DNA of 64,000 bases from positions 96,001 to 160,000 of the forward strand of contig CAVWVI010000003.1 of assembly GCA_963758495.1 (NCBI GenBank), read 5' to 3'. Below the pieces are notes generated by a model. The model was not told where the DNA came from. It did not search any database and saw only the letters and a program-made list of their open reading frames with translations. Both the position numbers and the translations under genes were made by a program. The DNA is from Oligoflexia bacterium (lineage in GTDB: Bacteria > Bdellovibrionota > UBA1018). How positions within the stretch are numbered: position 1 is the stretch's first letter; every line of letters starts with the position of its first letter. This document shows positions 53,736-62,430 of the stretch, one piece after another.

Positions 53736-53924
53736 CCTACTCAAAGGCGTCAACCTACAGCAATCAGCCGAAAAAAAACTGAAAACACGATTTCAGACGA
53801 GAAAAAACAGGGCTTTTCGCAAACAACAGGGAGCTTCCAGGGCAATTTGCAGGACGCTGTTAAAAACTTAACGCCGCCTCGCATTATAGACAGAAGTCAG
53901 CAGCTTTGCGAAACTAGAAGAAAG

Positions 53925-55997
53925 ATGCCAAAAACCATTCCTCCCTTTAAAATCCGACATCTACATCAATCAGAAAAAGGGCAGATCTCCATCATGATTG
54001 GTCTTATGATGATGACCTTCATTCTTTTCTTTGCATTCGTGATTAATGTCGGCATGCTCGTGAATGCGAAGATCAACTTACAAAATGCCGCTGACCTTGC
54101 CGCTTATGCCGGAGCGGCAACTCAAGCACGTCAATTGACACATATCTCCTACCTCAACTATGAAATGAGACGACAGTGGAAAAAATTCCTCTTTAGAATT
54201 TACGTCATCGGAAATATGTCACAAGACAGCTTCCCCCATGGAGGTGGAAGCGGCCCTATGAATTATATCCCGAACAACCAAGACGGCAGAGACTATCAAG
54301 TACCCACCACCTGTGTCATCTTCAACTCAACTGATAATTATTGTCATTTAACGGCTTTACCGGCGATCGCAATACCCAATTCAAATGCGGCCTCAAATTT
54401 TTTGGATTCAGTCACGGCGACCTTAACCGCACAACTTCAAGCCATAGAAAATATTCGACAGAATAACTGTAAAACGATTGGGATTACGAATAAAATGCTC
54501 AATATTTACTGGCTATTCAATGCAGATCCCAATCTCTCTCAGCTCGATGATACTTCAAATTCAAACCTCAGCATAGAGCAACAAAATGCCCTTAAAATTG
54601 TCAGAGGACTTGCTCATGGACTGGGAATTCTACCCAGAGAGGCGATTTTGAGAATGCGAATTCAAACGCTGAGCGACTACGTGAATAGCCCCGCTTTAAA
54701 AGATCAAACGATCGACGCGATTCAGAAGCTATCCAAAGGCCCCGATCCAATGGCAAATGAAAGAACCATTCAGGCTTTTTACTCAGCCTATTACACGTTA
54801 GGAAATCATACTTTTCCTGCGAGCACGATCAGTCTAGACGAACTTTTACCTGGAACACCTTCCCAAGCAGATTTACTTAAATTAGAGAACGTTTCACAAC
54901 CGTTTGATCTCTGGGCTGTTGATTTTATGCTGAATGGACATGGGGATTGTGCCGCTGTACTCGTTCCTATCCCAGTTAAACCTGGGCCCATAGTGGGTGT
55001 CTATAAAGACTCTCAAATGCTCACTTATTATGCGATTCGCCTGAAGGCAAAAGCAAAAATTCTTTTCTCACCCTTTGGTGACATCGATATGAAAGCCTAT
55101 GCAGCGGCTCAACCTTTTGGAAGTCGGATTGGTCCAGGTCCAAATCAAAAGCTCTCTTTCGCAGCCCAAGAACTTCCGAATTCAGCATTTCTTATCCCAG
55201 GAAATTCTCCCACTGGCTTAATTCCCAGTGTTTCCGTCCAAGCGGGAGAGAATGTTGCTAAAGGAATCGCCTGGGACACCCAGGATATGCAGTCAGCCCT
55301 CTACAGCTACTTAACCCATACGAACAACCCAGGAAGTTCCAGTACTGTTGATTTTAATGCAATTGAGAGCGCCTATGTCCCTGCCATGGCCCCTAATCCT
55401 TGGGAAACCAACCAGTACAACATTCCCAATGACATGTTGGGAGTCAATGATACTCCCGGCGATTCGTTTGTAAGGAATTTTGGAAATGATAATTATATGG
55501 CTTTTTGGGCTCCGGTGCTTCCACCCGGCTCACCCGCTAGTGTAAATGATAGAATTCAGATGTACCTCACCCCTCTCCCTGACACCCTTCAAGGTAATAA
55601 TACAACCGACCCAAGCAGTAATAATTCAGCAGCCATTACGGCAATCAAAGAATCACTGAAAATCGATTTGGAAAAATACGTATCGTCCACTCTCGCACGA
55701 GGTGCCGGAGAAGAGGGCGAAAGTCTCAACATTGTAAGGATCAAGAATCCTTTACTCAAAACAGATCTCAACCAAAAACTCTTCGTAACCGATAACCGCA
55801 AACTAAAAACCTCCTGGAATAGCGTCAACGATATTAACTTAAGAAAGGAGGGACGAGTGGGATACAGTGTGAAATTCGTCTCTTTCGATTCGCTTACACA
55901 GCACAAAAATCGATTAAGCGACCAAGGAGATACTCTAACAAATGACTTACCCCCAGAATCTGAGAGTGATCAGGATATTCCTTCTATCAAACATTGA
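53925..55997 (+). CDS. TadG-like Tad pilus protein
   Basis: Prepilin-like EKGQ plus hydrophobic helix, LQNAADLAAYAGA. Confidence 0.85.
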   Translation: MPKTIPPFKIRHLHQSEKGQISIMIGLMMMTFILFFAFVINVGMLVNAKINLQNAADLAAYAGAATQARQLTHISYLNYEMRRQWKKFLFRIYVIGNMSQDSFPHGGGSGPMNYIPNNQDGRDYQVPTTCVIFNSTDNYCHLTALPAIAIPNSNAASNFLDSVTATLTAQLQAIENIRQNNCKTIGITNKMLNIYWLFNADPNLSQLDDTSNSNLSIEQQNALKIVRGLAHGLGILPREAILRMRIQTLSDYVNSPALKDQTIDAIQKLSKGPDPMANERTIQAFYSAYYTLGNHTFPASTISLDELLPGTPSQADLLKLENVSQPFDLWAVDFMLNGHGDCAAVLVPIPVKPGPIVGVYKDSQMLTYYAIRLKAKAKILFSPFGDIDMKAYAAAQPFGSRIGPGPNQKLSFAAQELPNSAFLIPGNSPTGLIPSVSVQAGENVAKGIAWDTQDMQSALYSYLTHTNNPGSSSTVDFNAIESAYVPAMAPNPWETNQYNIPNDMLGVNDTPGDSFVRNFGNDNYMAFWAPVLPPGSPASVNDRIQMYLTPLPDTLQGNNTTDPSSNNSAAITAIKESLKIDLEKYVSSTLARGAGEEGESLNIVRIKNPLLKTDLNQKLFVTDNRKLKTSWNSVNDINLRKEGRVGYSVKFVSFDSLTQHKNRLSDQGDTLTNDLPPESESDQDIPSIKH

Positions 55998-60931: not shown

Positions 60932-61097
60932 AGTTATTTTCCTGATGGTGTTAGAGATCTAAAAATTCCTTCAGAGCTAACTTGATTTTGTCTATTATCA
61001 CATCGGGAAGAATACCTAAATCTTTTCTGAATTAAAGATATCTAAAATGGGTATTAATCCAGCCGAAGTCTTGGACTTTAGAGGTTGAACTACGCTG

Positions 61098-61145
61098 CTT
61101 CGGAAGCAGACCTTGATTCGCCTTCGGAAGCAGACCTTGATTCGC
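61098..61145. repeat. 24-bp tandem duplication with hairpin potential
   Basis: cttcggaagcagaccttgattcgc x2 just downstream of the RING gene stop. Confidence 0.85.
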
Positions 61146-61161
61146 CCCCGAAGTTCCATCA

Positions 61162-62268
61162 TCAAATGACCCGCAAGCCACTCACCACCGGCAAAACACA
61201 ACGGACAGTGACCTCTTCCTCAAGAGACCGAGGATAGGTGACGACGATGCCATAAACTCCACGAAAGACGTAGGCGACGTCACGATTATAAGGGACTACT
61301 GACGACGACCAAAAATAATTGTCCGCCATATCAGGGATTGCAAGATGATCATAATGAACAAGAGCCCCCAGCGATCTTCCTAAAGCCACATACTCATCTT
61401 GGGTGGGCAACCTCGCTCCTCCACGCAAATCTCGGCAAAACCGCTCTGCGCTCTCTTGATTCATCCTGCGAACGTGTCCATCTTCTTTTGGAACCCCACT
61501 CCAAATCGTACCTCCCACCTCAAACATTTCTCCAAATGCCGCGAACTCCGGAGTGACTCGCTGATCGTTCTCCATGACTCGAGTGATGGGAGTCCCCGAG
61601 AGAACGGGACTAGGATTTTCCTGAGCTCGGGCTTCAACAGAGCCTGCAACGTCGATCCGCCACTCTACTGGTTGAGCAGCAATCTCAAGCGCCAATTCCA
61701 CTTCCTCACCAGGAGTGTACCTCAAAGGTTGGAGCTGATTGGAATTTACAATCCTTTGACGGCATGTCGGACACTTATGTTGATTTTCGAGAGCCTGGGA
61801 AATACAAGAGCTGCAAAACACATGATTACACGGAGTCAACATCAGATCCTTGCCCTGCATTTCGTCTAAACAGACAGGACAAATTTCAGCCTGGCGAATA
61901 GCATCAATCTGGGTCTGTACCGGTTCCAGTTCGCTCGCCTTCAAAAGGTCAGCTTGTGCTTTCAAAAGATCAACTTGAGCTAACAGCTCATCAATCCGAA
62001 CTTGACATACAGTCTTCCGAGATTGCAACTCCTCAGGAACCCTACTCATTCTTCGTTTGTCCTCAATCAGTTGATTCAACCAAGAACCTTCCACCCGATC
62101 CCGTACATTTCGAACTGCATTTTCCGTAGCTCCAAAACCAGAAATCTGCACACGCATACCTTGAAATTCAAAAGTATTTTCTGGTGCAGCCGAAACCACA
62201 TTAGAAGCAAGAATTGCAGAAAAGCTCGCTATAATTATTCCTAATGTGATCGCAAGATATTTCCTCAT
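61162..62268 (-). CDS. Secreted C3HC4 RING-finger protein with C-terminal C-type-lectin-fold (DUF1566/FGE-like) domain
   Basis: Signal peptide MRKYLAITLG...VSA; coiled coil; CPVC...CNHVFCSSC...CPTCR; AERFC...ARLPTQDE...FWSSS...VRCV. Confidence 0.85.
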   Translation of the reverse strand: MRKYLAITLGIIIASFSAILASNVVSAAPENTFEFQGMRVQISGFGATENAVRNVRDRVEGSWLNQLIEDKRRMSRVPEELQSRKTVCQVRIDELLAQVDLLKAQADLLKASELEPVQTQIDAIRQAEICPVCLDEMQGKDLMLTPCNHVFCSSCISQALENQHKCPTCRQRIVNSNQLQPLRYTPGEEVELALEIAAQPVEWRIDVAGSVEARAQENPSPVLSGTPITRVMENDQRVTPEFAAFGEMFEVGGTIWSGVPKEDGHVRRMNQESAERFCRDLRGGARLPTQDEYVALGRSLGALVHYDHLAIPDMADNYFWSSSVVPYNRDVAYVFRGVYGIVVTYPRSLEEEVTVRCVLPVVSGLRVI

Positions 62269-62430
62269 ATTTCGTTCCTCGAATTCCCATACAAACGCAA
62301 GCAGGAGGCTATGGAAAAACATAAATAATTACAGATTGTTAATATTTGTCAGAGTTATTTTTGAAAAACAAACCTATCTAAAGAGATTACATCTGTCAAA
62401 AATATTAAATATAAAGTAAAAAACTATACA

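Follow-up and report, generated by a model that had tools for sequence, protein, structure and literature searches.

The question raised by this locus is whether a secreted bacterial protein joins a ubiquitin ligase module to a binding domain made variable by a diversity-generating retroelement (DGR). RING domains are eukaryote-type ubiquitin E3 modules. DGRs mutate the adenines of AAY codons in the C-terminal segment of C-type-lectin-fold (CLec) domains, which leaves NNY codons, and use an IMH and a hairpin on the 3' side. A preliminary description of the window (the whole stretch of 64,000 nucleotides that was analysed) placed both features in one gene, hereafter the focal gene, and proposed that it is a remote or former DGR target. 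Our reading, to which we give a probability of roughly 0.6, is that the gene encodes a predicted secreted RING ligase, that a DGR, now likely lost, generated the diversity of its CLec domain, and that the tip of this domain likely picks a substrate in a eukaryotic host. From the domain content of the protein, we infer that it would have E3 activity and would bind a substrate. Hereafter, G000 is the genome under study, other G-numbers are family genomes, Cn:position gives contig and position, and focal coordinates are those of the window.

Domain organization of the focal protein

The focal gene and its surroundings are laid out in Table 1. As announced in the preliminary description, the N-terminus (MRKYLAITLGIIIASFSAILASNVVSA-A) resembles a Sec signal peptide, the n/h/c pattern and the hydropathy (2.6) agreeing on this prediction. 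The coiled coil that had been proposed survives as a helical linker that is probably a coiled coil, the helix coming from a full-length single-sequence AF2 model of low confidence (pLDDT 40); 44 aa of this linker are absent from the two closest paralogues (tblastn).

Table 1. Features of the focal gene and of its surroundings, and CLec-tailed ligase-like loci of G000
Feature	Position	Strand	Basis or remark
Focal ORF	61162-62268	-	368 aa, ATG start at 62268
Ribosome-binding site GAGGA	62276..62280	-	7 nt upstream of ATG; read from sequence
Predicted Sec signal peptide, 27 aa	62188..62268	-	n/h/c pattern and hydropathy scan
Helical, probably coiled-coil linker	61894..62076	-	low-confidence AF2 helix; tblastn gap
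C3HC4 RING finger and Arg after last Cys (CPTCR)	61759..61881	-	Pfam; PDB alignments
C-type-lectin-fold (CLec, Lcl_C) domain	61165..61590	-	AF2 pLDDT 95.8; VIA-align
DGR-type variable region FWSSS...VRC	61198..61314	-	NNY core 61222-61296
Eroded IMH	61156..61188	-	TGAG-TGG in place of stop+GCGTGG
24-nt tandem duplication	61098-61145	.	overlaps imperfect hairpin
Imperfect hairpin, 6-bp perfect DNA stem	61122-61153	.	sequence
Dispersed ~55-nt repeat	61050..61107	.	12 copies in genome; no part of DGR signal
RING-CLec	focal, C3:787861, C2:121193		G000
Ankyrin-RING-CLec	C1:224057, C4:813108		G000
RING1-IBR-Rcat (RBR)-CLec	C4:41198-43000, C4:226894-228534		G000
RING1-like/Rcat-like-CLec	C3:187822, C2:117106 (frame-broken)		G000

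The C3HC4 RING is complete, as first described: all eight zinc ligands are present in RING spacing between 61762 and 61881, and the Pfam matches to zf-RING_2 (E=2e-11) and zf-C3HC4 (E=2e-9) lie above the cut-offs. Its best PDB matches are RNF4 (E=5e-10) and RING1B, which both share the CP-CR end. Alignment to these two proteins indicates that the E2-contact residues and the Arg after the last Cys are also present in the focal RING.

The proposal of a lectin-fold C-terminal domain was borne out by modelling. According to an AlphaFold model built from a 74-sequence alignment (pLDDT 95.8), this domain is a CLec fold. Its structural matches (VIA-align) are InvE (Z 11.6), Bd2740 (11.2), Lcl (10.8), TvpA (10.3), Mtd (8.9) and TaqVP (8.8), the last three being DGR variable proteins. 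The Pfam match to Lcl_C (PF07603, which we take to be the former DUF1566) falls below the cut-off (E=1.9e-4), the PDB sequence search with the CLec profile gave only weak matches (E 0.3) and the ESM Atlas search gave no usable match.

CLec-tailed proteins and ligase modules in G000 and its relatives

Paralogous tails, which the preliminary description had suggested looking for, were found with an iterated profile: G000 carries 21 ORFs or fragments with a CLec domain, corresponding to about 20 loci. Nine of these loci bear RING, RBR or RBR-like modules (Table 1), and 17 RING-like ORFs were counted in the genome. Other CLec-tailed proteins start with a metallophosphatase, with Sel1 or with a 770-900-aa type of N-terminal part. 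A hydrophobic, signal-peptide-like N-terminus was found by hydropathy in 15 of the 16 CLec ORFs of at least 200 aa.

Several loci of G000 deserve a separate description. The closest paralogue of the focal gene (C2:121193-123961) shows an internal deletion and carries a resolvase and TnpB element within its variable region; beyond this insertion, the distal part of the tail and the IMH are still present. A tandem cluster (C3:235986-247270) encodes secreted proteins of about 770 aa with strongly diversified tails, one copy being split by a transposase-like insertion. Another signal-peptide protein (C2:80583-81785, L184:2083-3285) has a possible BTB-like N-terminal region, recognized by eye, and a tail of the FGE-sulfatase-type CLec, a second DGR-target class. 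Three tandem RING proteins of about 250 aa without CLec tail are encoded at C1:160617-164468. Long (AACACC/AACGCC)n tracts of several hundred bases lie in C3:655740-667983 and C4:99689-99850. In the window, a TadG/TadE-like pilus protein (53847-55997, recognized by eye) is located beside lipoate synthase and pyruvate dehydrogenase genes.

At the family level, the CLec profile matches 23 of the 61 genomes, with at least eight copies in G000, G008, G049, G063 and G071, these counts being biased toward G000, G008 and G063, from whose sequences the profile was derived. RING was detected in 8/61, IBR in 11/75 and F-box in 11/75 family genomes (four of the F-box matches being over the cut-off). A RING-CLec protein is also found in G049 (27% over 227 aa), full RBR-CLec proteins in G000, G049 and G070, and F-box-CLec proteins in G049 and G031. 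Hence, ligase-CLec fusions occur in five genera (g1, g9, g50, g56 and g32). The 12 genomes with RING, IBR or F-box modules form one clade in a 29-genome rpoB tree (quick method, SH-aLRT 95), for which these 12 were picked for their ligase feature together with only 15 other family genomes, G049 having no rpoB match. In metagenomes, the partners of CLec, read from 66 of the top 150 matches, include ankyrin, IBR, RING, F-box, kinase-Sel1, HEAT, astacin and Smr.

The RBR-CLec proteins resemble eukaryotic RBRs such as ARIH1/HHARI and HOIL-1. Over the whole of RING1-IBR-Rcat, the protein encoded at C4:41198 can be aligned with human ARIH1 (E=6e-10). As in the other bacterial RBR proteins, the catalytic Cys of its Rcat finger is kept and the downstream His is replaced; unlike ARIH1 and HOIL-1, it is also bacterial, predicted to be secreted and fused to a CLec domain. 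According to the available text of a 2026 review, bacterial counterparts of RBRs have not been identified so far (PMC13720258). A shorter RING1-like/Rcat-like form without separate IBR is common. Complete RBR modules also occur at C5:~155800 and C2:~80100 in G000 and at loci L180, L185 and L186; some of the bacterial RBR proteins have ankyrins and no CLec tail, three of them lying in tandem in G037:C176. Furthermore, G000 encodes at C1:146139-148730 a protein with a signal peptide and WWE, RING, Deltex C-terminal, RWD, ARTD15_N and PARP domains, a putative eukaryote-type ligase/ADP-ribosyltransferase-like fusion located between ordinary bacterial genes.

Predicted function of the RING and CLec domains

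RING, RBR and F-box modules act with eukaryotic E1, E2 and ubiquitin. A Sec signal alone leads to the periplasm and not across the outer membrane. In our reading, Sec export of the focal protein would be followed by a further step that brings it into a eukaryotic cytosol, probably that of a protist. There, the RING would activate the E2~ubiquitin of the host, and the substrate would be held by the CLec tip. The action of RING, RBR and F-box modules together with eukaryotic E1, E2 and ubiquitin is also stated in the available part of the review (PMC13720258). In G000 and the relatives searched, UQ_con, Prok-E2_B and ubiquitin gave no match; since none of the positive-control genomes matched either, this result does not prove absence. 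No TLC nucleotide transporter was found in G000. Its four secretins are the same as those of ligase-free relatives, so that this comparison revealed no delivery route of a special kind.

Alternatively, the CLec tip may serve as a tag for delivery or anchoring, directed to the host surface, an organelle receptor or the bacterial surface, with the RING finding its substrates otherwise. We consider this unlikely, although several data fit it. The same tail is joined to unrelated N-terminal modules: it is found on non-ligase domains (metallophosphatase, Sel1, kinase and astacin) and on ankyrin-RING proteins, which already have a binder, so that a delivery tag would fit as well as a substrate receptor. 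Its nearest folds, InvE, Bd2740 and Lcl, are adhesins or surface binders, and the secretin search revealed no translocation system specific to ligase-bearing genomes. However, apart from the tail, no domain that might bind a substrate is seen in the F-box-CLec and RING-CLec proteins. Moreover, F-box and RING ligases usually consist of the module plus a C-terminal binder. Since many ligase-like genes of the clade are devoid of CLec tail, the tail is not a required export tag.

It is improbable that the RING has no ligase role and is a zinc finger of structural function or in decay, for instance one that is disulfide-bonded after export or directed against bacterial prey, the protein being then only a variable adhesin. 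This would suit a Cys-rich domain that is routed via Sec into an oxidising compartment, the breakage of several paralogues by insertion sequences or frameshifts, and the known predation of Bdellovibrionota on bacteria (PMC10769870). However, three paralogues retain all eight RING ligands and the terminal Arg, and RING, RBR (with its catalytic Cys), F-box and the Deltex-PARP protein co-occur in one clade. A host-directed RING ligase whose CLec tip, now fixed, selects the substrate is the reading that we consider most likely for the focal protein.

Absence of an active DGR in the G000 assembly

The preliminary description had seen neither RT nor template repeat in the window, and this extends to the whole assembly. 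No DGR-class RT was found in G000, all five RTs being of the group II intron type, and the profile search did not find Avd in the assembly. A stop-tolerant six-frame search with profiles from eight DGR RTs and five Avds of relatives matched only group II introns and revealed no relics. The whole-genome blastn search (word 7) that had been advised for a focal template repeat returned only tails. So did, for the 18 tails, nhmmer, an AAY-window scan and an A-tolerant ungapped scan, as well as the use of the templates of relatives as queries against G000. Over 105 nt, the best non-self window for the focal tail in G000 mismatches it at 23 non-A sites. Among metagenome and viral contigs, the template-like motif had no match, and a protein search of the metagenome contigs gave two 18-residue matches.

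The cis-elements of the focal gene are eroded. The G/T-rich tract noticed downstream of the variable region is present and reads as an eroded IMH rather than an intact one; the former stop codon now lies in another frame, and the protein continues a few residues further. By comparison, stop+GCGTGG is found in 7 of the 21 tails of G000 and in the cognate DGR targets of relatives. As for the hairpin-forming repeats reported at the same place, an imperfect hairpin lies in the 24-nt duplication, while the intact DGR targets of relatives have perfect 8-10-bp GC stems at this position. The remaining repeat of about 55 nt is a separate, dispersed element that has no match in Rfam and presumably resembles IS200/IS605-family ends.

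Since the G000 assembly (5 contigs) is 92% complete, a DGR might lie in a gap of the assembly or on a mobile element that was left unbinned, and the focal gene might still be a live remote target. C3:235986 would agree with this: it retains the IMH as well as a perfect hairpin of 8 bp, and its tail has diverged while the synonymous divergence of its body is only 14%. We nevertheless consider such a live target improbable given the stop-tolerant search, which found neither RT nor Avd, the lack of a template and the degradation of the focal IMH and hairpin. In addition, the tails of G000 differ mutually at many non-A sites and in length, and two sister tails differ at only 6/105 nt. Of three contig sets compared for polymorphism at codon positions 1 and 2, none extends over the focal tail. 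From these sequence data, the focal gene clearly reads as a former, orphaned DGR target and not as an active one. The proposal of a "remote or former" target is therefore supported in its second term and not in the first, as far as a live DGR is meant.

Codon footprint of DGR mutagenesis

The evidence for a former DGR target comes from an NNY excess, from a divergence of tails restricted to codon positions 1 and 2 and from adenine-biased differences with the template of a relative. The first of these was already noticed in the preliminary description, and a recount confirmed that 23 of the 25 codons at 61222-61296 are NNY. This exceeds the background of the gene (52%) and the 16.3 NNY codons expected from the amino acids and the codon use of the genome (p=7.5e-4), this window having been picked post hoc as the best one. 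In the fixed segment from FWSSS to RC, 25 of the 31 codons are NNY versus 18.0 expected (p=1.1e-3), whereas the remainder of the gene shows no excess (158/324 versus 162.7 expected). Windows with at least 23 NNY codons out of 25 are found in 40 of the 2539 ORFs when located anywhere, and in 14 of the 2539 when located within the last 64 codons; nine of these 14 ORFs belong to the CLec-tailed family. When 18 tails are pooled, three fragments being omitted, 440 of 535 codons are NNY versus 355.8 expected (p=2e-25), and the 80 codons upstream of the tails show no excess (653/1440 versus 723 expected). Furthermore, 166 of the 195 codons opposite a template AAY in the 18 tails end in C or T.

The second piece of evidence is given by two close paralogues, C3:235986 and C3:239514. 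Over 632 body codons, they differ by 9, 6 and 14% at codon positions 1, 2 and 3, respectively, versus 60, 47 and 10% over 30 tail codons. The contrast between tail and body is highly significant for positions 1 and 2 taken together (p=7e-19) and is not for position 3 (p=0.79), so that position-1/2 divergence is confined to the tail. Ordinary drift does not yield such a pattern, whereas the replacement of A by any nucleotide in AAY codons does. Between the focal tail and that of its nearest intact paralogue, the differences amount to 55, 59 and 52% at the three positions: compared with this pair, the focal gene is of greater age or has undergone more shuffling, and its tail has drifted.

Third, the focal tail differs from the G063 template at 25 of the 37 A sites versus 22 of the 74 other sites (p=1.5e-4), and its differences are thus adenine-biased; since the A sites are also the variable positions of the protein, constraint on the protein bears on this test. 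Unlike it, the third-position tests are independent of this constraint.

Intact and decayed DGR cassettes in relatives

Template repeats and DGR RTs are present in relatives. Avd was detected in 7 of the 61 family genomes, and G001:C26, G041:C14 and G063:C26 carry a target, Avd, a template and an RT, the variable regions being of the FW...RC type. In G063:C26, the order is target-Avd-template-RT, the Avd matches bAvd (E=7e-9) and 14 of the 37 A sites and 3 of the 74 other sites differ between the variable region and its own template. The target includes an Rcat-like zinc finger (IBR, E=1e-3) and a CLec domain; it is cut by the contig start and, in the assembly, shows a frame break ahead of the CLec part. 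Over 1,126 nt, it is 78% identical to a gene of G063:C4, which is an unbroken signal-peptide RING1-like/Rcat-like-CLec gene followed on its 3' side by the 3' flank of the template and by the last ~70 codons of the RT (L029:1860-2040). Judging from these remnants, G063:C4 is a collapsed DGR cassette. A truncated avd is also located behind a CLec tail in G071:C8 (L049:1085-1340). Both loci could be the intermediate steps by which loss of the cassette would turn targets into orphans. A tree of the CLec domains places the focal domain and the G063 target in a 29-row group (support 88); its resolution is poor, and our reading does not rest on it.

In our reading, a DGR would have rewritten the adenines of the tail until a useful binder became fixed. 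Duplication, domain shuffling and cassette loss would then have left about 20 variants, no longer changing and carried by various N-terminal modules. As the intact DGR of a relative is aimed at a similar ligase-like gene, the lineage likely mass-produces host-directed ligases with variable tips. More tentatively, and with slightly less than even confidence, these elements may form in a eukaryote-attacking clade of Bdellovibrionota an antibody-like factory for secreted RING, RBR and F-box ligases, which would leave an archive of fixed specificities and include the first bacterial RBRs. That the NNY run only reflects chance or amino-acid composition, no DGR having ever acted, is extremely improbable: although some window with at least 23/25 NNY codons exists in 40 of 2539 ORFs and no template was found in G000, this is contradicted by the amino-acid-aware test, the recurrence across the family, the position-specific divergence of paralogues, the IMH motif and the homologous intact DGRs of relatives.

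Relation to known systems and significance

Cyanobacterial DGR variable proteins, as described in the available text of Vallota-Eastman et al. (2020, PMC7517822), carry a C-terminal CLec domain on N-terminal enzymes and have dispersed paralogues. The G000 proteins resemble them by the grafting of CLec on enzymes and by paralogues that are spread over the genome and resemble the template to varying degrees. However, the cyanobacterial enzymes are, according to the same text, mostly cytosolic Ser/Thr kinases and orthocaspases found in DGR-bearing genomes (PMC7517822), whereas the G000 proteins bear signal peptides and ubiquitin-ligase-type modules and no DGR was found in the assembly. Likewise, Legionella LdtA (DUF1566 class) and Treponema TvpA share with this system the CLec fold, the 3' variable region, the IMH and the GC hairpin, the latter in the intact relatives (available text of Wu et al. 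2018, PMC5758913). Unlike the focal protein, targets of the LdtA/TvpA type are surface lipoproteins or adhesins, and the domain compositions described in that text include no ligase module (PMC5758913). Furthermore, the remote targets of Wu et al. are described there as differing only at A sites from a template of the same genome (PMC5758913), and the focal gene does not qualify as one of them.

Among ligase effectors, Simkania SneRING and Legionella LubX and RavN also combine a eukaryote-type E2-activating module with a second domain, and they act on host ubiquitin (PMC12591485, PMC13720258, in the parts available). In contrast, the focal RING is a canonical C3HC4 finger, Sec export is predicted, and the partner domain appears to have been hypermutated by a retroelement. 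In a search of the freely accessible literature on DGRs with ubiquitin ligases, RING domains or Bdellovibrio, no description of a DGR-diversified ligase was found. The available text of PMC8144416 and of bioRxiv 2023.09.22.558884 does not mention a DGR-ligase pairing, and the supplements of PMC8144416 (without files 9 and 12) and of PMC5758913 contain no RING, IBR or F-box terms. The system combines features of ligase effectors and of DGR targets, both known already, in a lineage where this was not expected.

Most DGR targets are sensors or adhesins for which no ligand is known. In the present system, the variable domain is attached to a predicted enzyme whose activity can be read out by standard means; hence, what a DGR-made binder recognizes would be directly testable via ubiquitylation. 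Moreover, NNY footprints can reveal the past action of a DGR in genomes where scans based on templates would report none. These data also point to bacterial RBR ligases, a class listed as not yet found in the available text of the 2026 review (PMC13720258). Finally, they point to hypermutation acting on host-manipulating enzymes, and to a lineage of Bdellovibrionota that likely deals with eukaryotes rather than with bacterial prey.
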